Shown here one piece after another: positions 9,203-48,773 of a DNA stretch of 52,806 bases. The position numbers were made by a program, and so were the translations under genes. Numbering within the stretch: the first letter of the stretch is position 1; each line of letters starts with the position of its first letter. The notes under the pieces were generated by a model that did no database searches, was not told the DNA's origin, and saw only the letters and a program-made list of their open reading frames with translations. Origin of the DNA: Escherichia virus TH24; sequence record MT446398.1, one strand, 5' to 3'.

Positions 9203-10651
9203 ATGTCAATCCCAATTTCTGATTTAGTTCAGGTTGATATCGCAATCTCCCCGAACGCCATTGCGACCGATGGTTTTGGGCCATTGCTCTTTATGAGCAA
9301 AGAGTTTGTACCGACCGTTGATGTATATCCGGTTCGTTCCTATACCAGTTTGAAAGAAGTTCTCGCAGACTTCCCTGGTGGTGAGATTGCTAAAGCTGCT
9401 ACCTCTTGGTACTCGCAGAAGCCAACTCCGAAGACTTTCCTGGTTGGTGCTATCAAGTACGATACTTTGACTCCAGCAACTCCTGCCACTGTTACTGCTG
9501 CAACTGCTGCTGTATTGGCAACCATTAAGCTGGAAACTGCTGCAACCATGCAGTTAAGTGTTAGCGGTGTTCAGTATGTTACTGACCCGATTGATTTCTC
9601 TGCTGCTGCTGACTTCGAAGAAGTTGCAACTCTAGTAACTACTGCACTATCTTCTGTTGGTGCTGGCGTAACTGTTACCCAGGAAGCTGGCAAGTTCAAG
9701 CTGACCACTTCTGCAACTGGCATCAACGCAACTATCAGCAACGTTGGTGGTAAAGTTGGTGAAGTGTTGAAGCTGCAATCTTCTGACAGTGCAGTTATTG
9801 TTGCTGGTAAGAACGAGCTATCCATCTCTTCCGACCTGTCTAATATTGCAGACGCTCCATTCAACTTCTTCTATGTAGGCCTTGACCGCCAGTATCGTGG
9901 CAAAACCTCTCCAGTAGACAACCAAATGTCTGTGGCGAAGTGGTGTGAAGCATCCAGCAAAGTATTTGGCTGGGGTGATAACGACAAGAACATTCTTATC
10001 AACGGCACTGATAACAGCTTCCGTCGTGCTAAGAACCAGAACCTGCGTAACACTCTGTGTGTTTACGATGCTTCTGCGAATGGTGATGAATATCCGGAAA
10101 TTTCTATCCTGGGTCGTGCATCAACTGTTAACTTTAACGTTGCAAACTCTGTTCTTATTCTGGCATACAAGAAAGGTCCAGGTATCGCCACTGCTGACCT
10201 GTCTTCTGGTCAGGTAAGTGCGCTGCTTTCTTGTGGTGGTAACGCATTCATTTCTGTTGCTGGCAACGTAATGTTCTACAACGGTCGTATGGCTGACGGC
10301 ACATGGTTCGACTCCGTACAAGGTGTTGAATGGCTGACTCAGAAAGTTCGACTGAACGTGTTCAACTTGTTCTACACTTCCACTACCAAGATTCCTTGGA
10401 CGGACACTGGTGTAGCAATGGTTAACCAGCAAGTAACTCTGGCGCTTGAACTCGCTAAGACTAACGGCCTCATTGCCCCTGGCTTTGATAACGAAGGTGT
10501 CTTCTATCCAGAAGGCTACAAAGTTATCTCTACTCCGTTAGAACTCTTGCAGTCGCAGAAGGGTGAACGTATTTGGGAAGGTACTTCCTTTATTGCTATC
10601 GGTTCCGGTGCAATCCAGGGTGCTGTAATCTCTGGCAACTTCATTCAGTAA
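9203..10651 (+). CDS. Tail sheath protein (putative)
   Basis: 482 aa, immediately upstream of tube, chaperone and tape-measure genes. Confidence 0.55.
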   Translation: MSIPISDLVQVDIAISPNAIATDGFGPLLFMSKEFVPTVDVYPVRSYTSLKEVLADFPGGEIAKAATSWYSQKPTPKTFLVGAIKYDTLTPATPATVTAATAAVLATIKLETAATMQLSVSGVQYVTDPIDFSAAADFEEVATLVTTALSSVGAGVTVTQEAGKFKLTTSATGINATISNVGGKVGEVLKLQSSDSAVIVAGKNELSISSDLSNIADAPFNFFYVGLDRQYRGKTSPVDNQMSVAKWCEASSKVFGWGDNDKNILINGTDNSFRRAKNQNLRNTLCVYDASANGDEYPEISILGRASTVNFNVANSVLILAYKKGPGIATADLSSGQVSALLSCGGNAFISVAGNVMFYNGRMADGTWFDSVQGVEWLTQKVRLNVFNLFYTSTTKIPWTDTGVAMVNQQVTLALELAKTNGLIAPGFDNEGVFYPEGYKVISTPLELLQSQKGERIWEGTSFIAIGSGAIQGAVISGNFIQ

Positions 10652-10660
10652 GGGTGAACA

Positions 10661-11116
10661 GTGAAGCAATATTCGTTTTATAATACAGACCTCCTGATTG
10701 ACGGTGCTCGTGTAGACGGTTTTCAGGCTGGACAATCTGTAATTACGGCACGCTACAACGTGCCACAGCATGTTCCTGTCATGGATGCATACGGCAAACT
10801 TGCTGTAGCAACCACTGCCGACCAGTCTGGGGTTATCACTTTCCCACTGCTGCAAACGGCAGACTGGAACGAAATCCTTTACCAACGTGCACAGCTTACT
10901 CGTGCAACTGGTTTGTCTGGTAACAAATCCCTCTGGGAACCTTTGCAGTTGCAATTGGTTGACAAGATGGGTGACGTACTGGTTAACGGTGTCAACGGTG
11001 CAATTCTGCAACAGCCAGCAATCGTTCGTGGTGTAACCTTCACTTCGAATATGTGGGCTGTGTTTGTAGAACGCCTCACCATCGTAACTGGCCAGTATCC
11101 AGAAATCGGCGTTTAA
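10661..11116 (+). CDS. Tail tube protein (putative)
   Basis: 151 aa between sheath and chaperone genes; GTG start with AGGGTGA RBS. Confidence 0.5.
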   Translation: MKQYSFYNTDLLIDGARVDGFQAGQSVITARYNVPQHVPVMDAYGKLAVATTADQSGVITFPLLQTADWNEILYQRAQLTRATGLSGNKSLWEPLQLQLVDKMGDVLVNGVNGAILQQPAIVRGVTFTSNMWAVFVERLTIVTGQYPEIGV

Positions 11117-11130
11117 TATAAGGTAAGAGC

Positions 11131-11589
11131 ATGGCTTGTGAACTTCGCCAACGCGAGTTGCAAGCCGACTCTGGTGAGATAGTTTTGGTTGGTACACGAC
11201 AACTCGGTGCCAGCCAAGCCCTTGACCTCCAAGTCGAGCTTGTTCAGAAACTCGGTATTTCGATATTCCCATTCGTTGAGAACAAATATAACTTTGCAGA
11301 CATTATTCATTTGATGCAGCAGGGTGGAACTCATACGGAAGTAACAGAATTAATTAAACGTGTAGTGTGTATGGCGACCATTGATGGTGTCGAAGTTAAT
11401 CCACGCACTATGCAGATGAAGTACAACGGCAATTTAATGCTCATGCACCATGTGTTTGCATTTGTTCTTGAATCGAACTTCCTTGATTTTTTCAAGCAAG
11501 GGCTCGAACTCAACGAACGCAGACAATTGGAGGCGGTGGAAGCATCCAAAATGGCCGAGCAGAAGAATTCGAGTCCGGAAACGATTTAA
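11131..11589 (+). CDS. Tail assembly chaperone (short, unshifted product)
   Basis: 152 aa between tube and tape-measure genes; contains slippery TTTTTTC at 11487-11493. Confidence 0.55.
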   Translation: MACELRQRELQADSGEIVLVGTRQLGASQALDLQVELVQKLGISIFPFVENKYNFADIIHLMQQGGTHTEVTELIKRVVCMATIDGVEVNPRTMQMKYNGNLMLMHHVFAFVLESNFLDFFKQGLELNERRQLEAVEASKMAEQKNSSPETI

Positions 11590-11765
11590 CTCAGAAGTTC
11601 CCGGAAATAAAATACTTCCTGCACCGTCCTGTAATAGAGGACAGTTCTCTCTGTTCTCTTAAAGAACTCTCGGACGGGACCTACTCTATTATGGATTTGT
11701 TAACTTTCCACGCAATACTTGATTTGCGTAATGAACTAAAACCTAAAGAAGAAGACAATGGCTAA
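11487..11765 (+). CDS. Tail assembly chaperone -1 frameshift extension
   Basis: The -1 frame has TGA at 11484-11486, then stays open 93 codons from the T_TTT_TTC heptamer to TAA 11763-11765, spanning the apparent intergenic gap and overlapping the next ATG. Confidence 0.5.
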   Translation, partial: FFQARARTQRTQTIGGGGSIQNGRAEEFESGNDLTQKFPEIKYFLHRPVIEDSSLCSLKELSDGTYSIMDLLTFHAILDLRNELKPKEEDNG

Positions 11766-14700
11766 GAACTTAAAAGATTTAATGAAGCTATCCGAGGCCG
11801 AACTAATCGGCATGGGTGCTCAGTACGGTCTGTCCTTCAATCCTGGTATGCGCAAACGAGATATGGCCCAGCAACTTGAATCGAGTGCTGCGTCAGGTTG
11901 GATGGAAACAAATTCACAGCTTTTGGGCGAACCAGATTCCCAGATGTATGAGGATGAAACTTCATACGGGACTTCTGATATGATTTCAGATGCAGCACAT
12001 GTAGCACAGATGATTTCTGGCGCTGGGCTGGCTGAAACATTCCATGCTGCAATGAACGGACCAGGACACCATGTAGAAGCAGTTCACGCATACATGGAAC
12101 AACTTGGTGTATCCACTGATGATGTTTGGATGCACATGCCTAAAGCCAACCCCAACAAGCCGGAAGGTCATTGGGGAATGCTTAACTCGTACATGCGAGA
12201 TACTCTTGCAGGTCATCAAGATATAATGCCTGAACTTGCCGGACACTACACCGGTAATATTATGGATGAATATTCCACAAACCGTGGAGATATTGCCAAG
12301 TCATTTGGTTATCTTGCTCACATGTATGTTGACCGTGAACAATACGACAACCCAGACCGCTATGCACGAGATGTTTATCGTGTAGCCAAACGTTTAGAAT
12401 CAGAATTACCGCAAAACTTCCGAGAAGTTGCTGCCGTATCTGCAATGAATGTAGGAAATAAGTCGGGGCCAAAACTTTCATACATGGATTCGTTGCCTCA
12501 ACTTGGCTCTGAATCTGTTGTTGGTGGGATTCAGCATCCCCGTCAACCTCTTAACGCATCTGGTTTACCTCTTGGTTCGTTTGGTGGCGGCATTAAGGCT
12601 GAATATTCTTTATCTGCATCCTTATCTGGTTCTCCAGGTTGGTCTGATGCAAGCAAAACGCTCTACCAAGATGTTTCTGGCGTAGTTAAATCTGCGGCAA
12701 AGGTTTATTCTGGTGGTGCTGAAAGAGGAATGAATGCATATCGCACTCAATCTTCTGACAGAGATTTAATCCTGGACTCTGCTTCTCGTTATGCAGACAT
12801 TGCAGATGTTCGTTCCGGTTACGATAACCTTAAGAAAGATATTGGTGACGACCCTCGATACTCTGGTTCATCTATTCGTGGCGTTCTTGAGAATGCTCAC
12901 CAATATAATGAGGCAGAAGTCGCTCGAACATTCGACCCTGCTGAACGTTTAAGGAATACTGGACCTGTAGAACTGAGTCCCTCTACAGAGTTTCTTGCAC
13001 AACTTGATTCTCCAACAAGTTGGAACTCTGCTCGCGCCCGTCGCGAGAGCATTGCTATATCTAATTTGGACTCTGCTCCACAACCAGCTCCGCAAGAAGG
13101 TCCAATCCGTTATCACAACATGGAACAGGGCACTCAGGAATGGTTAGACTTCCGCAAGCAATATGACATTACTGGCTCAACTGTCGGTTCATTTCTTGGT
13201 AACAATGAATATACTCGACCTTGGGCTGCAATGGTTGATAAAATTGGCCTACAACGCGGAAAGGGGCCAAGTGAATTTACCCAACGAATGTTCGAAGCAG
13301 GTCATCGGACGGAAGAAGTTGCTCGTAACCGTGTCGCCAAAGAGTTTGGATTCGACATTGAGCAAGCTGGCGCAATAACAAATGACAATTATCCGTCGTT
13401 CATGTATTCCCCAGATGGCCTTATCGGTGATGACGCGATTTGGGAACACAAGAACCCTGAAAGGGCTAAGAAGTTTTCTAACCTATCTGCTGGTGAGCAT
13501 AAGGATTACCTCGACCAAATTCAATTTGGTATGCTTGTATCTGGCCGTAGTCGTGCATTGTTCTCTCAGACAATCGGAGACAAGACGGTATCGGAATGGA
13601 TTGAGAAAGACGAGGGATGGTACGAACGCAACAAAGATAAGATTGATTCTACTATTGGTCGTCTTAATGCTGGTCGAGAGTTTGTTGAAGCTAATTCAGA
13701 CTTGTCCAATGATGATTTAATCAAAGGTGCTCGTGCTGCAATGACTGGCGATGGCATCTGGAAGGATGTTAAGCAGAAGTCAACGCGTGGTTACTCTGCC
13801 GCTGCTGGTACAGCCGATGACCCATTCATAGGCAACCGTACCAGTGTTGGAGTTGGTGAAGCCACAGCCTCTGCCGTAGGCTCTGACAGCACAACTGGCA
13901 ATGACCTGATGGCAGTATCTGTCAAGAAAGGTATCCTCGCTGCTCAGGAAGAAAACAAGCTGCGCGGACAAGATGCCGACTTCGGGGACAATGGTTGTCG
14001 TGGCGGTGGTGGCGGCTTCTGGGACACCTTCGATGCTAGTAGTTATGGCATTGGTGGAGGTGGTTCCGGTGGCGGTGGCGGTCGTGGTTGGAATACTGGT
14101 GGCAGCTTCTCAGATGACTTCGGTCGTGCTGGTGGCGCATTGGCTGCTGGCGTAGCTGGCGGTAGCATAGGCTCACTATCCAATGGTGCAATGAATGCCC
14201 TCATGATGACTCCGTGGGGACGTGTGGCGGGTATGGCTATCGGTGCTACCCAGATTGGTAACGAGGCGCTCGAAGGTCTGAACGATTTCTACGGAAACTC
14301 TTTAGACGCTGGTGTCAATAACCCTAACGAATATTCTTCCATGTCACAGGGCTTGGAGATGTTAGGGCTTAATCAGCAACAAGCTGGCCGACTCAATCGA
14401 ACCACACATAGTGCCTATAACACCCTCCTAAATGGCGACCCTAGTGGCGCTGTCAACATCGTTCAAGGAACCCGTGGTCTTATCACCATTGGCGACATTC
14501 GTGCGGCACAGGGCGACCCTGTAGCCTTAGCGCGGGTAATGCGTGAACGTGGTCAGGAGCGGGGCTGGAGTCAGGCTCGTATCGCTGGGGCTATGGAGAT
14601 GGCAGGTCTGGATGGCATGGCTCGCGCCTATGACCGCACAGATTACAGCGTGAACGAGGCTCAGGAGAACGTAAGCCGTGGAGCCAGCTCACAGTATGCC

Positions 14701-15435
14701 GATGGTATTGCACAGCTAGGAATAGCGCAGACGGAGCGTGCTGGGGTGCTGCCAGGATACGCAGTCCCGCAAGCTGCAATATCCTACGGGAGTTCATTTA
14801 TCGAAGCAGGTGGAGATGCGGCCAGAGTAGCGCGTACAGCGTCAAATGGTTTAGCTGATACTACCAGAACGGTATATGACTTTATCGCAGGAGAAGAGTC
14901 AGGGAACCGCGATTTGAACGCAGATGGTTCGGTGGTTACATCTCCGACTGGTGCCAAAGGTCGTATGCAGGTTCTTGATTCAACTTCCCGTGACCCAGGA
15001 TTCGGCGTTAAACCTGCACGTGATAACTCACTGGAAGAGCGTGCTCGCGTTGGTCGTGACTACTACGATGCAATGCTCAAGCGTTATAATGGTGACGCTG
15101 AGAAGGCTATGGCGGCGTATACGGATGGTGCTGGAACTGTTGATGATGCTATCAACAAACACGGAACCGACTGGCTCAATGCTGTTCCTCTACAGGCACA
15201 GAACCGCGTCAAGAAGTACCGTGAATGGGCTTCTCAGGGCGATTCTATTGCAGAAGGTGCAACTGGCTTCACCAGAAATGGACTGTCTTATGGTCAGACA
15301 CAGGCCACTGTAGTTAACGTTGAAGTCAAAGCTACTGTGAACAATAAGCAAGCGTCTGCAACCGTGTCAACTCCGAACGGTCAAACTGTTACCCAAACAA
15401 TCAACATGGGTAATGGTGCAATGGAACGTAGATAA
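11758..15435 (+). CDS. Tape-measure-position multidomain virion protein with YqaJ-like nuclease and lytic transglycosylase domains
   Basis: 1225 aa. EQGTQEWLDFRKQYDITGS...SPDGLIGDDAIWEHK...YLDQIQFGMLVSG (PD-(D/E)XK YqaJ-like, ~13120-13700); Gly-rich stretch; C-terminal GEESGNRD...GAKGRMQV...AAYTDG (SLT-like, ~14880-15250). Confidence 0.7.
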   Translation: MAKNLKDLMKLSEAELIGMGAQYGLSFNPGMRKRDMAQQLESSAASGWMETNSQLLGEPDSQMYEDETSYGTSDMISDAAHVAQMISGAGLAETFHAAMNGPGHHVEAVHAYMEQLGVSTDDVWMHMPKANPNKPEGHWGMLNSYMRDTLAGHQDIMPELAGHYTGNIMDEYSTNRGDIAKSFGYLAHMYVDREQYDNPDRYARDVYRVAKRLESELPQNFREVAAVSAMNVGNKSGPKLSYMDSLPQLGSESVVGGIQHPRQPLNASGLPLGSFGGGIKAEYSLSASLSGSPGWSDASKTLYQDVSGVVKSAAKVYSGGAERGMNAYRTQSSDRDLILDSASRYADIADVRSGYDNLKKDIGDDPRYSGSSIRGVLENAHQYNEAEVARTFDPAERLRNTGPVELSPSTEFLAQLDSPTSWNSARARRESIAISNLDSAPQPAPQEGPIRYHNMEQGTQEWLDFRKQYDITGSTVGSFLGNNEYTRPWAAMVDKIGLQRGKGPSEFTQRMFEAGHRTEEVARNRVAKEFGFDIEQAGAITNDNYPSFMYSPDGLIGDDAIWEHKNPERAKKFSNLSAGEHKDYLDQIQFGMLVSGRSRALFSQTIGDKTVSEWIEKDEGWYERNKDKIDSTIGRLNAGREFVEANSDLSNDDLIKGARAAMTGDGIWKDVKQKSTRGYSAAAGTADDPFIGNRTSVGVGEATASAVGSDSTTGNDLMAVSVKKGILAAQEENKLRGQDADFGDNGCRGGGGGFWDTFDASSYGIGGGGSGGGGGRGWNTGGSFSDDFGRAGGALAAGVAGGSIGSLSNGAMNALMMTPWGRVAGMAIGATQIGNEALEGLNDFYGNSLDAGVNNPNEYSSMSQGLEMLGLNQQQAGRLNRTTHSAYNTLLNGDPSGAVNIVQGTRGLITIGDIRAAQGDPVALARVMRERGQERGWSQARIAGAMEMAGLDGMARAYDRTDYSVNEAQENVSRGASSQYADGIAQLGIAQTERAGVLPGYAVPQAAISYGSSFIEAGGDAARVARTASNGLADTTRTVYDFIAGEESGNRDLNADGSVVTSPTGAKGRMQVLDSTSRDPGFGVKPARDNSLEERARVGRDYYDAMLKRYNGDAEKAMAAYTDGAGTVDDAINKHGTDWLNAVPLQAQNRVKKYREWASQGDSIAEGATGFTRNGLSYGQTQATVVNVEVKATVNNKQASATVSTPNGQTVTQTINMGNGAMERR

Positions 15436-15469: not shown

Positions 15470-15510
15470 AATATTATTTGAATATGTATTAATTTCAATA
15501 GGTGTATAAC

Positions 15511-16608
15511 ATGCCGTGGATGCGTGGTATAGAGATAGTTGTCTCAAGAAAGGATGACCCAGAAACCAAGTCTGTGTTTAAAGCGCACAAGATTGATTTC
15601 ACCATCCGGTCAACTGTTGGTTGGCCAGCAGATACTGCCGATATTACTCTATACAACCTGGGCGTCGATGAAGTTAAGTTCCTTCAAGACAAGTCTTATG
15701 GTGATATGTATGTTGAAATTCGTGCAGGATACTATGAAGACGAGCGTATTGTTAATGCTGGTCATAGTAAGTATCAAAGCCCAAGCCAGGCTGATTCGGA
15801 AGTAAGGGTTGAAATTGGCCAAGTCCTGCCAACAATCTTCTCTGGCATAGTAACAAACGCAGTTGGATTCAGACGTCCTCCAGAACACGTAACACAATTG
15901 TTTTGTATCTCCAAAGCCTATGGTGCATCTACTGAATTTACTCAGATGAAAGATATTCCAAATGGTGCAACTTTGGAAGACGCCATTCGTTCTATGTGTG
16001 CAGACTATGGCTTCTCCACCATTTCATCTTTTGGTGTTGAAGAATCTGTATTCAAATCTCAGTTGAAGTTGGGTCGAGTATTCCATGACACATTCTTGGA
16101 AGAGTTCCGAACCCTGCTTGGAGAATACAATTTACTATTCTCTGTAACCACTGGTGAGATTCAAATCTTCCCAGATACCTACGGCAACAAAGATGCTGTA
16201 GATAGAATGTCAAAAGACCGTGAACCAATCAAGCTGGATGCCAACCAGGTTATTGGAAACCCTATTGCTGGAATTGCAACATACTCCTTGAATACATTTC
16301 TGAATGCCAGTTATCAACCAGGTATGATTCTGGATGTATCTCCTTTGCTGGGAGAACAATTGCTGGCGAATGGTGTTACTTCTGTAACTGGAAAGGGTGT
16401 TGTTCTTAACACAGACCAAAGCGTGTTCCGTTGGGCGATGGAAGATAAATACTTCATCACAGAAGTTGTCCACCATGGCTCAACCCATGAAACTGTTTTC
16501 CAAACAACCATCACTGCAATGCTTGGTGGCAATACTGCAATGGGCGGTAAAGAAGCGGCTTGGCAGCAAGCCTACTTAAACAGTGGAATGGCTATGGAGT
16601 CTTTCTAA
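15511..16608 (+). CDS. Tail or baseplate protein (putative)
   Basis: ATG 15511 with AGGTG RBS (track start 15502 is GTG); first gene after the tape-measure-position gene. Confidence 0.5.
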   Translation: MPWMRGIEIVVSRKDDPETKSVFKAHKIDFTIRSTVGWPADTADITLYNLGVDEVKFLQDKSYGDMYVEIRAGYYEDERIVNAGHSKYQSPSQADSEVRVEIGQVLPTIFSGIVTNAVGFRRPPEHVTQLFCISKAYGASTEFTQMKDIPNGATLEDAIRSMCADYGFSTISSFGVEESVFKSQLKLGRVFHDTFLEEFRTLLGEYNLLFSVTTGEIQIFPDTYGNKDAVDRMSKDREPIKLDANQVIGNPIAGIATYSLNTFLNASYQPGMILDVSPLLGEQLLANGVTSVTGKGVVLNTDQSVFRWAMEDKYFITEVVHHGSTHETVFQTTITAMLGGNTAMGGKEAAWQQAYLNSGMAMESF

Positions 16609-17510: not shown

Positions 17511-17869
17511 CAGAACAACAAGCACTGCAAGAAATATTATCACTACTCCCACCGGGATATGTGAAGACTGTTCCATACGATATCTCAAAGGATGTATCTT
17601 TTGAGTTCCGTGGAATCACAGTCAAAATGTCTGCATTGTATTTAAACGAGTATTTGAACTGTTATATGTTTGACCTTGCTTGGGGTTCCTCCGAAAAGAT
17701 TTATGGAATCCCTATTCGTGGTGGTATTGATATTCTTAAACAATACAGTACACCACTGCCGAACATGTACGTTACGAATACTGTAAGCCCAGGAGAAGAG
17801 GTTTACACTTGGCGACAAATGTTTCTCTTCATCGTAGATGCGAGTGTACTTGAACGTGGCGAGTCATAA
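17507..17869 (+). CDS. Hypothetical baseplate protein
   Basis: 120 aa, ATGA overlap with upstream stop. Confidence 0.5.
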   Translation: MTEQQALQEILSLLPPGYVKTVPYDISKDVSFEFRGITVKMSALYLNEYLNCYMFDLAWGSSEKIYGIPIRGGIDILKQYSTPLPNMYVTNTVSPGEEVYTWRQMFLFIVDASVLERGES

Positions 17870-18629
17870 CAACGATGTAAAGTCTGCAACTGTTAACACA
17901 GGATACCCAGGCCATATTTACAACTTCGATGCTGTAACTCAAACATGTGAGGTACAGCTTGCAATCGAAAACTTATTCACAGGCTACACCAATGCCTACA
18001 CCCTGGAGAAGAAGAAGCGGCTCAGAAATGTTCCCGTGCAATTCATTCAGGGTGGTGGCTGGAGTTTAACGCATCCAGTCCCGGATGGTACTCCTTGCTA
18101 TGTTCATTTTGCTCAACGTGGAATCGAACATTGGCTGGCAGAGAATAAAGATTCTGCTGGCATGGTTGGTGGAAGACCTGCCCCAGCATTCAGTCAACTG
18201 TTCTCTCACAACTCTGCTGTGTGCATTATTGGGACACAACCAATTCCAGGTGCAATACCAGGATTTAATGCAGGAGTTGCTGAACTCCGAAATGCAAGTC
18301 GTGACCAACGTCTGACTCTTCATGGTGACGGAAAGGTAGAACTTATCACTGGTGCTGCAAAGATTACAATCACGAAAGATTCGGAGATAGTAATTGAAGC
18401 GACAGAAAAAGCGTCTGTTATCGCGCCGCAAATCCTTTTGGATGGTGACACTACAGTTACCAAATCACTTACAGTCCTCGGTGGAATGTCAGTGTCAGGC
18501 GGCAGTGGTGGAACAATGTCCATTACAGGCGACATGGTTCAACAAGGTACGTTCACCATTAACGGGGTCACGGTTAACGAACACACTCACACTAACCCAG
18601 AAGGCGGCGATGTAGGGCCGATGAAATAA
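17838..18629 (+). CDS. Baseplate central spike (gpV-like, putative)
   Basis: 263 aa; C-terminal Gly/Ser-rich beta-helix-like stretch ending NEHTHTNPEGG, as in spike tips. Start ambiguous (ATG 17838, GTG 17844 or 17856). Confidence 0.5.
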   Translation: MRVYLNVASHNNDVKSATVNTGYPGHIYNFDAVTQTCEVQLAIENLFTGYTNAYTLEKKKRLRNVPVQFIQGGGWSLTHPVPDGTPCYVHFAQRGIEHWLAENKDSAGMVGGRPAPAFSQLFSHNSAVCIIGTQPIPGAIPGFNAGVAELRNASRDQRLTLHGDGKVELITGAAKITITKDSEIVIEATEKASVIAPQILLDGDTTVTKSLTVLGGMSVSGGSGGTMSITGDMVQQGTFTINGVTVNEHTHTNPEGGDVGPMK

Positions 18630-25602: not shown

Positions 25603-26160
25603 ATGCTACAAGCACAAGTTCTTGCATTTCTGTTGGTGAGTCTGTTTCACGCAAATGTCCCAGCTTCGGCTGGGGCAGTGAACACTACTATTACAGATTT
25701 TGCAAGTCATTCTTATTTAAATGGAAGTCTGAAACTATCTTCTTCACAACGCAAAGAGCTAGAATGCTACACTAAAGTTGTCTGGTATGAAGCTCGTGGA
25801 GAAGACAAACATGGAAAGATTCTGGTAGCTAATGTCGTCCGTAATAGAACTGAGTTCGGGAAGCCATTCGCTAACACCGTTTGTGATGTTGTCTATCAAC
25901 GCAATCAATTTGCATGGGCACGAGAAGCAAAGAAGAAGAATGCTCAATGGAAGCATGTAGCAAAGGTTAATTATGCCACAGAACAACAACAAGTTCTGGA
26001 CACCATTAACGTTGCAATCTCTTTTGTACTATTTAATCAACCCTCTGTCACCAAAGCAACTCACTTTTGTACAGCATCGGAGAAGTGCAACTTCAAGAAT
26101 GTTAAAGGTTTGGGTCGTTATGGTGGTCATAAATTCTATGAGTATCTAGGAAATCTGTAA
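25603..26160 (+). CDS. SleB-like cell-wall hydrolase with N-terminal signal/anchor sequence
   Basis: [51 protein letters not shown] matches the SleB/Hydrolase_2 core; N-terminal [23 protein letters not shown]. Confidence 0.65.
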
Positions 26161-27278
26161 TGGCTTACACTACCTTTTCACAAACCAAGAATAACCAACT
26201 ATTAGAACCAATGTTCTTTGGTCAGAACGTCAACGTTGCTCGCTATGACCAACAGAAGTACGGCATATTCGAGAAGTTGATTGAGAAACAATTGTCATTC
26301 TTCTGGAGACCGGAAGAGGTAGATGTTTCACAAGACCGTATTGATTATCAGAAGCTCCCACCAAATGAGCAGCACATTTTCACCAGTAATTTGCGCTATC
26401 AAATCCTTCTGGACTCCATTCAGGGACGTGGGCCTAACACAGTTTTGCTTCCAATCGTGAGCATTCCTGAGCTAGAAACTTGGATTGAAACTTGGTCTTT
26501 CTCCGAGACTATCCATTCACGTTCTTACACCCACATCATTCGAAACATTGTTACAGACCCAAGCATTATCTTTGATGAAATCGTAACTAACGAACACATC
26601 AAAGCACGAGCAATTGGCATCTCCCAATATTATGACGAACTTCAACAACTCACTGCATTATGGCAGTTGTTCGGAGAAGGGAATCATGCTGGTCATGAAA
26701 TTAGTCTGCGAGAGTTGAAGAAGAAGCTCTATCTATGCCTCATGTCTATCAACGCACTGGAAGCAATTCGCTTCTATGTTAGCTTTGCTTGCTCATTTGC
26801 CTTCGCTGAACGTAAGCTAATGGAAGGAAATGCCAAGATTATTCGACTGATTGCACGAGATGAAGCACTCCATTTGACCGGAACTCAGCACATGTTGAAT
26901 ATCCTGGCGAGTGGTAAAGATGACCCAGAAATGGGCGAAATTGCCCAAGAATGTCGTGAAGAATGCCAGAAATTATTCGAAGATGCTGCTCAACAAGAGA
27001 AAGATTGGGCCGATTATCTGTTCAAAGATGGCTCCATGATTGGCTTAAACAAGCAAATTCTGTGCGGATATGTGGAATATATCACGAATATTCGTATGCA
27101 AGCAGTTGGATTAGATGCTCCATTCAAAGGTGCAACTAACCCGATTCCGTGGATTAACGCATGGTTGAATTCGGATGCTGTACAGGTTGCTCCACAGGAA
27201 ACGGAGATTAGTTCTTACCTGGTCGGGCAAATTGACTCCGAAGTTGATACTGATGCGCTTGGTGGATTCGAGTTGTAA
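26160..27278 (+). CDS. nrdB: Ribonucleotide reductase class Ia beta subunit (orphan, enterobacterial-like)
   Basis: Near-colinear with E. coli NrdB as I recall it ([11 protein letters not shown]..., [54 protein letters not shown]-terminal [14 protein letters not shown]); no nrdA-sized ORF in the genome. Confidence 0.9.
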
Positions 27279-27580: not shown

Positions 27581-27769
27581 CAATATTATAATTTTATTTT
27601 TGGGCCAGCGGGGAGGGGAAGCCCAACGTCCTATCGGACTTAAATACGGTCCCTACCCCAACTTTTTCCTGTAGCCTATCGGCTTTCAAACAACTCCAAG
27701 TTAGGCGCTTCGCTTATGAGTCAAGGTCAAAGTCTCCGTGCTGTTGTATCAATGGCACAGGTTTGTGGT

Positions 27770-27784
27770 ATTAGTTGGACGTGA
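27770..27784 (+). promoter_or_regulatory. Variant of the conserved ATTAGTTGGATGTGA motif upstream of the RNAP gene
   Basis: ATTAGTTGGACGTGA, one mismatch to the core, 77 nt upstream of the RNAP ATG; a TATAAT hexamer lies at 27806-27811. Confidence 0.3.
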
Positions 27785-27860
27785 ATTGTGTAATGGCTAC
27801 GCTATTATAATCCGTTTCATTCAAATCATACACAATCTTGGAGACTTACAAATGACTACT

Positions 27861-29792
27861 ATCACTACTCAAACTATCAAATCTGTTGTTCCTGCTATCA
27901 CTGCTCTGGTATACCGTGCCAAAGAGAAGCAGAACTATATGCAGCCTCAGACTTGTGCTATTGCTGCCTTAGCCATATTCAAGATGATGACGTCTTTCAC
28001 GCGTGATGACGTTATTCCGGCTATCTCGATGGTTGAACTGGCTTCTGCTTCCATTGCTGATGCCAACCGCTACAACAACGACTTAAAGTCAATGCACTAT
28101 GTTGACCCAGCTATCAACCTGATTGGTCTGGCTAAACACTTCGGTTTCATCACCATGAACGAGGACAAATCGTTCCAGATGACTGATGCATGGGTTGAAC
28201 TGGTTACAACCAAAGATACCTCAGTTCCATTCACTGAGCGTGTAACAAATGAATCTCGTCGTAAGCCTTTCGTTAAAGGTGGCAAAGTTAAGCCATCCAA
28301 GACTCTGAAAGCTGCGATTGAATTCCTGCAAGATACTGAATATCACGTTGATGCAACAATGGTTAAGGTTATCTCTTCCATGTTAGAACAACGTACATTT
28401 GGTGGCTTACAGATGCCAGAAGCAATCCAGACTGAACTCCATGTTTGGAACAATGCTGTAGCAATGGTTGGTCAGGACACTCTGTTCTCTGACTACTTTG
28501 CTGATAACCGTGGTCGTCTGTATCATGTAGCATGTGCTGGTCCTAACCCACAATCATCTGACTTTGCTCGTTGCCTGTATTCCCACAATGTTGAGAACAC
28601 TGTGAGCAAGTTTAATGCTGATGGTTCAACAACTCTGGCATACAACATGTTCATGCTTGAGCTGGAAGATATCGCTGGTGGAGACTGGACTTCTGCAAAA
28701 CGTTTAACTTATGTTGCTCAGAATCCAGCTGGTTCACTTGCTCGCATGTTGAATATGCCTAAAGGTGAGCGTCCTTCTAAGCCATTCACTTATGTTCGTC
28801 TGGCTCTGGATTGGTTCAAGTTTGAGACTACAGGTGAGTGCGATTCTCGTGTAGGCTTTGGCTTAGATGCTAAATGTTCTGGTACTCAATACTTGGCATT
28901 CATTGCTGGTAATATGGAGATGGCTCGTGCAACAGGTCTGGTTGATTCTGAGACTAAAGCATCTGACCCATACCAGTTATCTCTTCGTGAACTGTTGAAG
29001 TTGCTTGACCGTTCTTCAATGAAACCATCCGCTGAAATTATGGATGAATTCTTGAATCCGAAAGCTGGTCGTAAGTTTATCAAAACTCCATACATGGCTA
29101 TCCAATATGGTGGTGGTAAAGCTGCACTAACTGGTTCTTCTGATTTCATCGCATACATGACAGAAGCTCTCCAGATTCCTATGGAGAAAGCTGATGCATT
29201 TGCTGAACTTTGTGTAGAAGCAATCCATAACGCATTGGGTGCTAAGATTAACATGTTCATCGAGAAAGCTGCTGATGCTGCATTTGCTCGTTGTGTTGAA
29301 CTCAACAAAGAGTACATCACATATAAGCACACTGATGGCCAAGTTGTAATGAAGCCTTGCTTCCCATCTCGTGATGTTTGTGATGCGTTCAGCATTCGTG
29401 TTGACTCTCAAACTCGTGTCATCTTTGGTCAGATTCAGGAGAATAAGCCTTGGACCATTCGTGAGTCCAATCCAACTAAGGAAGAATTCAAGCGTACTTT
29501 CGTTGTTAACTACATTCAAGGTATTGACGCATTGGTTGCTCGTACTGTTGCAGTCAAAGCTAAAGAAGCTGGTCTTCGTGGCTTTACTTCAATTCACGAT
29601 TGCTTCCGTTGCTGCTTGGCTGATGCTCCTAAAATGATGGAAGTGATTCGTTCTGCTTATATTGAAATCTTTGTTCATAATAATCAGTTTGAATCTTTGT
29701 CTAAGCAACTTGGTGGCATCAACATGTACCATGAGAACATCGTAACAGAAGAGCTTCTGATGAGCGAACACGCTTACTATTTCTGTCAATAA
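27861..29792 (+). CDS. Single-subunit (T7-like) DNA-dependent RNA polymerase, compact form
   Basis: GFGLDAKCSGTQ (motif A Asp), RKFIKTPYMAIQYGGG (motif B), FTSIHDCF (motif C Asp). ATG 27861 with GGAGA RBS; 643 aa versus 883 in T7. Confidence 0.8.
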   Translation: MTTQTIKSVVPAITALVYRAKEKQNYMQPQTCAIAALAIFKMMTSFTRDDVIPAISMVELASASIADANRYNNDLKSMHYVDPAINLIGLAKHFGFITMNEDKSFQMTDAWVELVTTKDTSVPFTERVTNESRRKPFVKGGKVKPSKTLKAAIEFLQDTEYHVDATMVKVISSMLEQRTFGGLQMPEAIQTELHVWNNAVAMVGQDTLFSDYFADNRGRLYHVACAGPNPQSSDFARCLYSHNVENTVSKFNADGSTTLAYNMFMLELEDIAGGDWTSAKRLTYVAQNPAGSLARMLNMPKGERPSKPFTYVRLALDWFKFETTGECDSRVGFGLDAKCSGTQYLAFIAGNMEMARATGLVDSETKASDPYQLSLRELLKLLDRSSMKPSAEIMDEFLNPKAGRKFIKTPYMAIQYGGGKAALTGSSDFIAYMTEALQIPMEKADAFAELCVEAIHNALGAKINMFIEKAADAAFARCVELNKEYITYKHTDGQVVMKPCFPSRDVCDAFSIRVDSQTRVIFGQIQENKPWTIRESNPTKEEFKRTFVVNYIQGIDALVARTVAVKAKEAGLRGFTSIHDCFRCCLADAPKMMEVIRSAYIEIFVHNNQFESLSKQLGGINMYHENIVTEELLMSEHAYYFCQ

Positions 29793-33609: not shown

Positions 33610-33987
33610 ATGGCACAATATTCAGACGTAAACACTGGCATCATCGGTTCCAATGGCTTCAAGAAAGACCCAAAACATCCTGACGTTCGTGGACGTATTA
33701 ACGTTGACGGAGTCTGGTATTGGGTGTCCGGTTGGAACAAGCAAGCCAATGGTAATGAATTTACCTCGCTGGCCCTCACCATCATGACCCAAGAACAGGT
33801 CGATGAAATGATGCGTAAGCGTGAAGAGAAAGCTAAAGCCAAAGCTCAACCTCAAGCCGCTGCACAACAGCAACAGCAACGCCAGCAACCTGCTGCACAA
33901 CAGCAAGCACCTGTTCAGCAACAGACGCAGAACAGTAACTATAATCCGAACGAGCCGAAAGACTTCGACGACGACATTCCTTTCTAA
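33610..33987 (+). CDS. Small protein ending in the bacterial SSB C-terminal tip DFDDDIPF (SSB-tail mimic or minimal SSB)
   Basis: 125 aa; Gln/Ala/Pro-rich linker (QPQAAAQQQQQRQQPAAQQQAPVQQQ) then DFDDDIPF at the extreme C-terminus; N-terminal region is too short for a canonical OB fold. Confidence 0.6.
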   Translation: MAQYSDVNTGIIGSNGFKKDPKHPDVRGRINVDGVWYWVSGWNKQANGNEFTSLALTIMTQEQVDEMMRKREEKAKAKAQPQAAAQQQQQRQQPAAQQQAPVQQQTQNSNYNPNEPKDFDDDIPF

Positions 33988-36923: not shown

Positions 36924-37214
36924 ATGGAGCATCCGATGGAATATCAGGAAATACCGAAAGAATTAGAGCGTATGCAGGAGCGTACGTCTCGTGCAGAGGC
37001 AGAACTCCACCAACATTTGTCAAATCATGTGCAAGATTCCCGTAGTCTGAGACACGAAATTGAGGTTGGCAGATGCTGTTATCTAGTAACATATGAAGAG
37101 AAGACCGCCATCCTGGACATACTAGTAAAGGGCGGGAAAGGGCGAATCGAACAGCTCAAAATCCTTAATATGGAACTTCAAGGTATGTGGGAGAAACTCA
37201 ATGCAAAACGATAA
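36924..37214 (+). CDS. Hypothetical protein
   Basis: 96 aa, charged and helical-looking. Confidence 0.45.
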   Translation: MEHPMEYQEIPKELERMQERTSRAEAELHQHLSNHVQDSRSLRHEIEVGRCCYLVTYEEKTAILDILVKGGKGRIEQLKILNMELQGMWEKLNAKR

Positions 37215-37749
37215 CATTACTAAAGCAGTGGAACAACTTAAGTCCTGGCGTAGAGATGAAACCTTATTGGTTCGTTTCTACACAGGCGAAAACAATTCCG
37301 AGTATGAAGATGCTTGGATTGATGGCCTGGCATGGCGGCTCTATGACTTCAACATGCCAGAATATTTGCACGAAGAATATGGCATCGAGTACCCAGAAAC
37401 AGGGACTTACGACATTCTCGAATCAAGAGATGAGGATGTTACAGAAGTTTGCTTTGTTGATGGCCTATTCAGCCTACGCAAGTATGACAAATTCAATGAA
37501 CTTTTAAATGATACTGATTTGTTTGTAATTCTTGCTGCATTCCGTAGTGGTGAGATTGATATTTTCACTGTGAATGATTTGAACGACATGTTCATCACTC
37601 GTTGCGACTCAATTGCAGACTACTTAAAGCAAAGTGAGGCATTGGATATTCCAGGCCGTCTTGCTCCATATATTGATTGGGAAGCTATTGTCCGAGATTA
37701 CGGAAGCGACTACATCTTCTCCGAAGGAGTATTGTTCTTAAATGTGTGA
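37201..37749 (+). CDS. ArdA-like antirestriction protein (putative DNA mimic)
   Basis: 182 aa, strongly acidic; C-terminal LAPYIDWEAIVRDYGSDYIFSEGVLFLNV resembles the conserved ArdA C-terminal block. Confidence 0.45.
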   Translation: MQNDNITKAVEQLKSWRRDETLLVRFYTGENNSEYEDAWIDGLAWRLYDFNMPEYLHEEYGIEYPETGTYDILESRDEDVTEVCFVDGLFSLRKYDKFNELLNDTDLFVILAAFRSGEIDIFTVNDLNDMFITRCDSIADYLKQSEALDIPGRLAPYIDWEAIVRDYGSDYIFSEGVLFLNV

Positions 37750-47909: not shown

Positions 47910-48773
47910 ATGGCATTTGCTGCTCCTACTCTGGCCTCGAACAAGACTCCTTCTGCTGCACCATTACTGGAAGCGGGTGGTTATCCTGCTCGTGTCTGCC
48001 GTATTATCGACCTGGGCTTACAGCCAGGCTCTGCTAAATATCCAAACCCATCCCTGAAACTTCTGGTTACTTTCGAACTGCTCGACGAGTACATGAAAGA
48101 GGTTGATGGCAATGGTGCTATGGTCATGGTCCAAGACCCGGACGAAGATGACGGCGTAATGATGGCGAAGAATCTTGAAGACAAGCCGCGTTGGTTTGAC
48201 TTTGAGTTTACCTACAACGCTGACGGCTTCATGGGTGACAACTCCCACATCTACAAATTCGCTAAAGCGATTGATGCTCTGGAAGTTAAACAGAATCTGG
48301 AACAAAGTATCCAGGGCCACCCTGCTAAGAACCTGCCAGATTGGTTGGGCGAACCTCTGGTTGTTGGCATTGTCCAGTACACCAAACAGTCTGGCAAGAA
48401 CGCTGGTCAGGTTGCGAACAAGGTTGCTACCTTCTCCCCAATGAAGTCCAAAGAGAAGAAAGAAGCCAAAGCTCTGGTTAACCCGACTGTGTTCTTCGAC
48501 ATGTCTGAGCCAGACCTGGAAGTATTCAACAAACTGCCTGGTGGTGATTCTCCTTACGCAATCAAGAACCGCATTACTGGTGGTGTTGACTTCTACAAAA
48601 CCAAACTGTCTACCCTGCTGGGCGGTAAACCTGCTGATGATTCTGTTCCGAATCAGGCTTCTGATGAAGAAGTTGATGCAGCAATGAAAGCTGAACTGGA
48701 AGCTCAAGCTGCTGCAAAAGCACAGCGTGAAGCGGAAGGTGGTGCTGCTGGCGGTACTGGAATGCCGTTCTAA
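47910..48773 (+). CDS. Putative ssDNA-binding protein (T7 gp2.5-like architecture)
   Basis: 287 aa, host-optimal codons, acidic C-terminal tail ending in Phe (DEEVDAAMKAELEAQ...GTGMPF), located in the replication module. Confidence 0.4.
   Translation: MAFAAPTLASNKTPSAAPLLEAGGYPARVCRIIDLGLQPGSAKYPNPSLKLLVTFELLDEYMKEVDGNGAMVMVQDPDEDDGVMMAKNLEDKPRWFDFEFTYNADGFMGDNSHIYKFAKAIDALEVKQNLEQSIQGHPAKNLPDWLGEPLVVGIVQYTKQSGKNAGQVANKVATFSPMKSKEKKEAKALVNPTVFFDMSEPDLEVFNKLPGGDSPYAIKNRITGGVDFYKTKLSTLLGGKPADDSVPNQASDEEVDAAMKAELEAQAAAKAQREAEGGAAGGTGMPF

Follow-up and report, generated by a model that had tools for sequence, protein, structure and literature searches.

Why should the tail of a phage contain what looks like a DNA exonuclease? 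The question is raised by a stretch of 52,806 nucleotides (nt) from Escherichia virus TH24 (record MT446398.1; the whole stretch is called the window below), in which a large open reading frame (ORF; 11758..15435, plus strand) encodes a protein of 1225 amino acids (aa), free of internal stops, at the position of a tape-measure gene. A reading made from the sequence alone (the sequence-only reading) had claimed that this protein combines a YqaJ-like PD-(D/E)XK nuclease domain, Gly-rich linkers and a C-terminal SLT-like lytic transglycosylase domain, that the genome contains no evident RecT/Redbeta/Erf partner, and that a nuclease delivered with the tail would be an unusual ejected effector. As checks it had proposed searches with YqaJ and SLT profiles, structure prediction of the nuclease region and proteomics of virions.

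The nuclease claim was borne out by profile, predicted fold and catalytic residues alike. The Pfam family YqaJ (PF09588) matched aa 461-597 with an E-value of 4.7e-12; its 46.9 bits are well above the gathering score of 22, and the match spanned profile positions 1-149 of 150. Three RecE-like/exonuclease families of PHROGs matched aa ~432-643 with E-values down to 7e-21, and the best sequence match in the PDB was LHK-Exo, the alkaline exonuclease of Laribacter hongkongensis (3syy, E 5e-8). The motifs named by the sequence-only reading are located at aa 456-474 (EQGTQEWLDFRKQYDITGS), aa 551-565 (SPDGLIGDDAIWEHK) and aa 584-596 (YLDQIQFGMLVSG), and the nucleotide range it gave, ~13120-13700, corresponds to aa 456-648. 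In an alignment to lambda exonuclease, R466 takes the place of R28 in the 5'-phosphate pocket and E519 that of E85, the catalytic motif D553...E563-x-K565 (13414..13452, +) falls on D119, E129 and K131, and Q587-x-Q589 matches the conserved Q-x-Q. From an alignment of 74 sequences AlphaFold built a model of aa 425-705 with a mean predicted local distance difference test score (pLDDT) of 90 and a predicted template modelling score (pTM) of 0.84. When this predicted fold was compared with the PDB by Foldseek, LHK-Exo (3syy; E 1.4e-9, template modelling score (TM) 0.78, probability 1.00) and lambda exonuclease (1avq/3slp; TM 0.66, probability 1.00) were found, followed by Cas4-like and MGME1 nucleases. 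The region thus has a profile score above threshold, the catalytic motif together with the extra Glu and the Q-x-Q, the Arg of the 5'-phosphate pocket and the fold of the YqaJ family, and given the Pfam hit and the Foldseek matches neither a missing profile hit nor an incompatible fold can be held against the assignment. We consider the domain at aa 447-690 (13096..13827, +), which reached a pLDDT of 85-95 also in the model of the whole protein, to be a predicted and apparently catalytically intact 5'-to-3' DNA exonuclease of the lambda-Exo/YqaJ type.

The second enzymatic part is an SLT (GH23) lytic transglycosylase domain at aa 1038-1162 (14869..15243, +; pLDDT 83-88). Pfam family SLT (PF01464) matched aa 1060-1136 with an E-value of 7.9e-7 and 29.1 bits (threshold 21.3), so both of the proposed profile searches gave significant hits. 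The stretches GEESGNRD (aa 1045-1052), GAKGRMQV (aa 1065-1072) and AAYTDG (aa 1119-1124) hold the ES (E1047-S1048), GxMQ and AYxxG motifs, respectively. All but one of 71 homologues retain the catalytic E1047, and S1048, Q1071 and Y1121 are conserved. By fold, Foldseek matched this region to MltD, to Slt70 and to an entry for a T7 core protein (9jyy_I) that we take to be the ejected protein gp16. Profile, catalytic Glu of the E-S pair and fold all place the domain in the SLT/GH23 family, as had been claimed.

Between and around these two enzymes an AlphaFold model of aa 1-1200 (mean pLDDT 67.5) predicts a series of further folded parts and linkers. A short helical start (aa 1-45, pLDDT 63-78) is followed by a helix-rich N-terminal domain (aa 77-382; 11986..12903, +; pLDDT mostly 70-91), a low-confidence linker (aa 383-446, pLDDT <50) and the nuclease. 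Then come a Gly-rich linker with 26% Gly (aa 691-838; 13828..14271, +; pLDDT <50 over aa 694-838), which agrees with the linkers noticed by the sequence-only reading, a helical domain (aa 839-989; 14272..14724, +; pLDDT 84-92), another linker (aa 990-1037, pLDDT <50) and the SLT domain. By composition and hydropathy, moderate hydrophobicity in a Gly/Ala-rich stretch is confined to the end of the Gly-rich linker, aa 788-833. The helical domain is also found in gp11 of phage pAh6-C (aa 345-426, BLASTP E 4e-8). In a Foldseek search of the whole model against the PDB fold relatives were obtained only for the nuclease and SLT parts, and the N-terminal domain, for which this search gave no PDB fold match, is an orphan in other respects as well: it had no Pfam match either within the protein or alone at E-values up to 10, and a 12-sequence profile of it found nothing significant among PDB sequences (best E 0.066). 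It has invariant residues, namely H126, H163, D205, E223 and D340, and may be a third functional module. The first 45 aa had also been considered as a helix-extended-helix (Rho-N/SAP-like) DNA-binding motif, which was dropped as it found no support in Pfam.

The gene neighborhood identifies the protein as a component of the tail lumen. The window is the genome of a Carltongylesvirus-like myophage of the family Chaseviridae, and the window itself is a circular permutation in which the terminal repeat is present in one copy only. The DNA of the large gene is 96-98% identical to that of Escherichia viruses TH29 and TH25 and of Yersinia phage PYps23T (Chaseviridae, Cleopatravirinae). The protein shares 97.6% identity with gp66 of PYps23T, annotated as 'tape measure protein', and 66% with gp62 of phiEcoM-GJ1, the founding member of the Chaseviridae, and it matched the 'virion structural protein' family phrog_19855 over its full length with 1745 bits (PHROGs). 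Upstream of it we found genes for the tail sheath (9203..10651, +; phrog_205, E 1.4e-92), the tail tube (10661..11116, +; phrog_280, E 2.4e-29; the PYps23T orthologue is annotated as tail tube protein) and a G-like tail assembly chaperone (11131..11589, +; Pfam Phage_TAC_15, E 2.9e-14; phrog_11820). Three-frame translation and a heptamer scan revealed a canonical slippery heptamer T_TTT_TTC (11487-11493) inside the chaperone gene, where its register suits a -1 slip. No stop interrupts the -1 frame (11487..11765, +) before a TAA at 11763-11765, which would yield a GT-like chaperone product, and this extension overlaps the large ORF by 8 nt from its ATG on; the annotations of phiEcoM-GJ1, BSBP01 and PYps3T contain an identical 8-nt overlap. 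Chaperone pairs of the G/GT type are a conserved marker ahead of tape-measure genes. Downstream follow the baseplate hub gene (15502..16608, +; phrog_196, E 8e-47) and, 3' of it, genes for a Dit-like protein, spike and wedge. With sheath, tube, a TAC_15 chaperone and an in-register -1 site before the ORF and the hub gene after it, the tape-measure position assumed by the sequence-only reading holds, and the ORF encodes the tail-lumen protein of this phage. At the chaperone gene the program-made ORF list gives an unrelated ORF in the +1 frame (11450-11662), which is probably no gene.

The fusion is not restricted to TH24. In a word-index search of 5.8 billion proteins the full-length query was needed to recover Chaseviridae homologues (a query restricted to the nuclease domain recovered just three small stand-alone proteins and missed these homologues altogether). 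With the full-length query 89 homologues of 39-99% identity were obtained, nearly all with both PF09588 and PF01464 according to precomputed annotation. R466, E519, D553, E563, K565, Q587 and Q589 were invariant in all 71 homologues of a conservation alignment (42-91% identical to the window protein), and the YqaJ segment was the most conserved part of the protein (42 of 185 positions invariant, compared to 29 of 430 in the N-terminal region and 7 of 125 in the SLT domain). The ratio of nonsynonymous to synonymous substitution rates (dN/dS) among six closely related genomes was 0.087 for the nuclease domain and 0.095 for the whole gene, excluding phiEcoM-GJ1, whose pairs are saturated at synonymous sites; these values point to strong purifying selection on the nuclease domain. 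In a phage collection 79 records of cultured Cleopatravirinae covered at least 80% of the protein, and all were of the Chaseviridae type. Hosts among the records listed were Escherichia, Shigella, Yersinia, Erwinia, Pantoea, Pectobacterium, Proteus and Aeromonas, and the genomes had sizes of 51-57 kb. All other tblastn matches to the nuclease domain were free-standing exonucleases of recombination modules, often beside an ERF/Sak gene.

More distant relatives show the same arrangement. In the Aeromonas phage pAh6-C (Nefertitivirinae; NC_025459, 4608-7741) two genes, gp10 and gp11, follow the chaperone gene in different frames and with a 7-nt overlap, and the YqaJ domain straddles their junction: gp10 has W..R.GkVTSS at its end, gp11 has TPDA...VEVKS...QMQHQ at its start. 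This might be either a sequencing or annotation frameshift within one gene or a real programmed shift. Uninterrupted versions occur in pAh6.2TG (likewise Nefertitivirinae; 925 aa) and Shewanella phage Spp001, both of which match by fold. An exhaustive HMMER scan of 1.84 billion representative proteins yielded more proteins of ~960-1530 aa with the domain in the middle of the chain, some of them with an SLT domain, among them P0104, which is encoded on a metagenomic contig, is preceded by sheath, tube, TAC_15 and a 58-aa ORF and keeps the catalytic motifs. Since the fusion occurs in both subfamilies and in distant metagenomic relatives it must be old, and it is conserved as a hallmark throughout the Chaseviridae, not an oddity of TH24. 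The gene itself is a mosaic: the N-terminal domains of the window protein and of phiEcoM-GJ1 share 81% identity, their nuclease segments (13096-13827 in the window) only 54%, with saturated synonymous sites. The window nuclease is nearer to that of phage 4HA13 (76%), which suggests that the middle module has been exchanged between lineages. A Chaseviridae-type gene 66% identical to the ORF, with ~80% DNA identity over 1 kb, was also encountered in GenBank record PP952070 (Staphylococcus phage Pel53). The record is labelled as a phage of Staphylococcus hyicus; this host label seems questionable, or contamination might be present in the record.

Evidence for the presence of the protein in virions comes from the 4HA13 orthologue (~65% identical, 128 kDa), which was detected by liquid chromatography-tandem mass spectrometry (LC-MS/MS) at 64-67% coverage in twice CsCl-banded, DNase-treated virions and gave the second strongest peptide signal, behind the capsid protein. 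With coverage of this extent it is unlikely that an internal domain of 245 residues has been removed wholesale, and the homologue's proteomics gave no sign of the cleavage that, according to the sequence-only reading, could have kept the nuclease out of the virion, although such coverage is not conclusive for the segment itself. The 4HA13 protein has 1204 aa, which at 1.5 Å per residue would extend over ~181 nm, compared to a measured tail of 116.5 nm; as a matter of arithmetic and not as a test, the two figures agree only if ~430 residues in globular domains are left uncounted. The tube lumen of a myophage is ~4 nm wide, as estimated from T4. Three copies would fill about one third and six copies about two thirds of the lumen volume, so that packing would be feasible only at low copy number. 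Table S2 of the 4HA13 supplement further lists the small phage single-stranded DNA-binding protein (SSB; window 33610-33987) and several 'hypothetical' proteins of the early region, at 50-62% coverage in twice CsCl-banded virions. These could be contaminants or packaged proteins, and a co-delivered SSB would matter for the hypothesis on the nuclease.

A possible substrate is suggested by the ends of the genome. Chaseviridae genomes are linear, terminally redundant and non-permuted, with repeats of ~3 kb (ICTV profile), and the direct terminal repeat of PYps23T has ~2.3 kb. The left end of PYps23T maps to window position 27780, at the start of a T7-like RNA polymerase ORF (27738-29792), and therefore the terminal repeat carries the earliest gene. 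The RNA polymerase gene of phiEcoM-GJ1 is preceded by an annotated putative host sigma70 promoter. The replication genes form a T7-type set of SSB, primase-helicase, DNA polymerase, flap endonuclease (FEN)-type (T7 gp6-like) 5'-3' exonuclease, endonuclease VII and ligase. An annealing protein of the RecT, Red-beta, Erf or Sak type was found neither among 20 scanned ORFs, with the small ORFs not exhaustively searched, nor in the annotations of PYps23T and phiEcoM-GJ1, so the sequence-only reading was also right, within this scope, that no partner is evident. The pair of exonuclease and annealing partner that makes up a two-component recombinase is thus absent from the scanned ORFs. With no annealing partner found and a separate FEN-type exonuclease present, the YqaJ domain is not simply an ordinary recombination exonuclease.

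Two genes of this region were looked at as potential annealing partners, namely a 287-aa ORF (47910-48773) and the SSB gene, and for both Pfam and PDB sequences were uninformative. The 287-aa ORF is conserved, lies between the genes for DNA polymerase and 5'-3' exonuclease, and belongs to phrog_862 of unknown function; it shares a weak family match to phrog_2544 with the C-terminal part of the SSB and could be a second single-stranded DNA-binding or annealing factor. Elsewhere in the window an anti-restriction protein (37201-37749; phrog_14321) is encoded among the early genes, and the small subunit of a class Ia ribonucleotide reductase at 26160-27278, with no large subunit seen nearby.

What, then, might the tail nuclease do? 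We see about an even chance that it is active, is delivered and acts on DNA ends at entry. A more specific version, in which it enters in contact with the leading genome end and resects the long terminal repeats ahead of all phage gene expression, is the reading that we prefer, though it is tentative and, taken as a whole, rather doubtful. The C-terminal end of the protein would be located at the baseplate and would leave the tail first upon contraction. The SLT domain would then cut peptidoglycan, as in T7 gp16 and hydrolase-carrying tape measures, the Gly/Ala-rich segment (aa 788-833) might contribute to a membrane conduit, and the N-terminal half including the exonuclease would enter just before the leading DNA end. 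Enzymes of the lambda-Exo type require a duplex end with a 5' phosphate, and given this requirement the phage's own leading end would be the obvious substrate. Resection of the 5' strands of the terminal repeats would produce long 3' tails, which would be poor substrates for RecBCD and would hide the ends from this enzyme, and a 3' tail could anneal with the other repeat so that the genome would circularise or concatemerise before phage gene expression. Resecting a repeat would cost no information, as a copy is present at the other genome end.

Several points weigh against this proposal. The activity of the nuclease, its entry into the cytoplasm and its substrate are predictions. Peptide coverage of 64-67% in a homologue cannot prove that the nuclease segment itself is present in virions, and a folded domain of ~25 kDa would be a tight fit for a lumen of ~4 nm, although it might travel partly unfolded. 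In the model of the whole protein 349 of the 1200 residues (29%) have a pLDDT <50 and the folded parts are globular; the protein is thus predicted to be a chain of globular domains and not a classic tape measure with a long helix. Resection would furthermore remove the duplex form of the RNA polymerase gene and of the promoter annotated before it in phiEcoM-GJ1, unless annealing is fast, and no co-delivered annealing protein is known.

An injected exonuclease could instead be directed against other DNA, and attack the host chromosome, a plasmid or the DNA of a co-infecting phage, leading to host shut-off or exclusion of rivals. The intact and conserved active site and the presence of the 4HA13 homologue in virions would suit such an effector, and nucleases have a precedent as cargo in the lumen of phage-tail-like injection systems, as the MAC arrays reportedly carry the nuclease effector Pne1. 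However, a lambda-Exo-type enzyme needs a DNA end, preferably a 5'-phosphorylated one, and R466 keeps the corresponding pocket, whereas a circular chromosome has no ends, and only few copies would be available per virion. In cells infected with the related phage Tiny nucleoids were condensed at 20-40 min and loss of staining with 4',6-diamidino-2-phenylindole (DAPI) was seen only at 60 min, and early destruction of host DNA was down-weighted on the basis of this cytology. We consider an attack on foreign or host DNA unlikely. Alternatively, the nuclease might serve the producing cell, in RecE/lambda-Exo-like recombination-dependent replication or in concatemer processing, with its location in a tail protein being incidental or regulatory. 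It is the only lambda-Exo-type nuclease of the genome, and its late expression would coincide with concatemer processing. Such a role is hard to reconcile with the same mid-chain position of the domain in both subfamilies and in metagenomic relatives, where the flanking regions have diverged beyond recognition by BLAST, and the genome already encodes a T7 gp6-like 5'-3' exonuclease, endonuclease VII, ligase and SSB. In addition, a tape-measure protein is normally bound by its chaperones and enclosed in the tube. On balance a function in the producing cell appears quite unlikely to us.

The domain might also leave DNA undegraded and use the lambda-Exo fold as a clamp that holds the leading end and pilots or protects the DNA, in the manner of 80alpha gp44, T4 gp2 and Mu N. 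Conservation of the 5'-phosphate-binding Arg is compatible with this, as is the precedent of virion proteins that bind and protect genome ends. Metal ligands and the catalytic Lys would be superfluous for mere binding, yet none of the 71 aligned homologues departs from them, pAh6-C and P0104 retain them as well, and we give a non-degrading clamp little credence. It is very improbable, finally, that the ORF encodes something other than a tape measure, such as a spike resembling T4 gp5, a tail fibre or the 'tail tube initiator' named in several GenBank records. In favour of this, its orthologues have been deposited under conflicting names ('probable T4 gp5 analog', tail fiber, tail tube initiator, virion structural protein, tape measure protein and, in one case, 'putative endonuclease'), none of the Pfam tape-measure families is hit by the 1225-aa protein, and the model lacks a single long helix. 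Against this stand the location of the ORF directly 3' of a TAC_15 chaperone gene with a -1 frameshift, a separate spike gene (17838-18629) and likewise separate fibre genes, and the lack of any second tape-measure candidate in the interval between tube and hub. An identity as T4 gp5 analogue or tail fibre was rejected on the grounds of gene order and the separate spike gene.

Should the predicted exonuclease indeed act on the entering phage DNA, it would be the first DNA-processing enzyme known as an integral part of a phage tape measure. It would also offer a functional reason for the unusually long terminal repeats of the Chaseviridae, and would mean that a phage starts DNA-end processing with a pre-made, co-injected enzyme. 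This is relevant to the way in which linear, terminally redundant genomes withstand RecBCD and gain competence for replication within the first minutes of infection, and to our knowledge the early survival of such genomes is poorly understood beyond T4, T7, Mu and lambda. Transport of a folded ~25-kDa enzyme would then also be within the capacity of the tail lumen, a point of interest for the engineering of cargo for phage tails and contractile injection systems. On the practical side, more than 70 deposited Chaseviridae genomes name the gene inconsistently, and several such phages are in development for biocontrol.

Members of the gene family have been deposited repeatedly, and precomputed tables already display the Pfam architecture. 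In the Chaseviridae genome papers covered by the search, the protein goes by tail fiber or tape measure without comment. Our literature search found no report of a DNA exonuclease within a tape measure and no paper that pairs YqaJ with any Chaseviridae term, with two older genome papers (phiEcoM-GJ1 2008 and vB_EamM-Y2 2011) lying outside the search; papers containing both 'YqaJ' and 'tape measure' look, judged by their titles, like unrelated genome descriptions. The new part would be a tape-measure-position protein whose embedded enzyme is a predicted DNA exonuclease, beside a cell-wall hydrolase of a known type.

The protein can be compared with several known systems. With lambda exonuclease, RecE and YqaJ enzymes it shares the fold (TM about 0.66-0.79) and the same D, E-x-K, Q-x-Q, Glu and 5'-phosphate Arg. 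Known members of this group are free-standing proteins of ~200-300 aa that are encoded beside Red-beta, RecT, Erf or Sak, whereas the TH24 domain forms aa 447-690 of a 1225-aa tail protein, for which the search for an annealing partner gave none. Tape measures with enzymatic domains offer a second comparison. Pb2 of phage T5 is a tape measure with an embedded enzymatic domain, and the tape measure of mycobacteriophage TM4 is said to contain a peptidoglycan hydrolase motif. Like these, the TH24 protein is a tail-lumen protein at the tape-measure position with a cell-wall-degrading module, here the SLT domain. The enzymes of known tape measures act on the cell wall, however, while the TH24 protein adds a predicted DNA exonuclease, and it is predicted to form a chain of globular domains and linkers instead of a long helix. 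T7 gp16 likewise has the SLT domain of an ejected protein, matched by fold in 9jyy_I, and Chaseviridae share the T7-like RNA polymerase and replication genes, but gp16 is a nuclease-free protein stored in the head of a podovirus and the TH24 protein a module of a myovirus tail.

A wider parallel is found in the polyvalent proteins described by Iyer et al. (2017; PMC5512222), which are large multidomain proteins with enzymes targeting nucleic acids and peptidoglycan that enter together with the invading DNA and serve the earliest minutes of infection. That survey began from MuF, portal, relaxase, Alt and DarB-type proteins and mentions neither YqaJ nor tape measures (PMC5512222). The TH24 protein combines two enzymatic domains in one virion protein, which may be delivered into the cell, and here the tail-lumen protein would act as the carrier. 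It also resembles the MAC arrays with Pne1 in that a nuclease is combined with a contractile tail device. Pne1 is a separate cargo instead of a part of a virus's own tape-measure-position protein, belongs to a headless system aimed at eukaryotic cells and is not known to be of the lambda-Exo type. Another comparison is offered by virion-delivered proteins of genome ends, of which T4 gp2 and Mu N are examples and 80alpha gp44 is reportedly another. The action on DNA ends at entry, against host exonucleases, that we propose for the TH24 protein would be shared with them. However, gp44, gp2 and N cap the ends, whereas the TH24 protein is predicted to degrade one strand of them.

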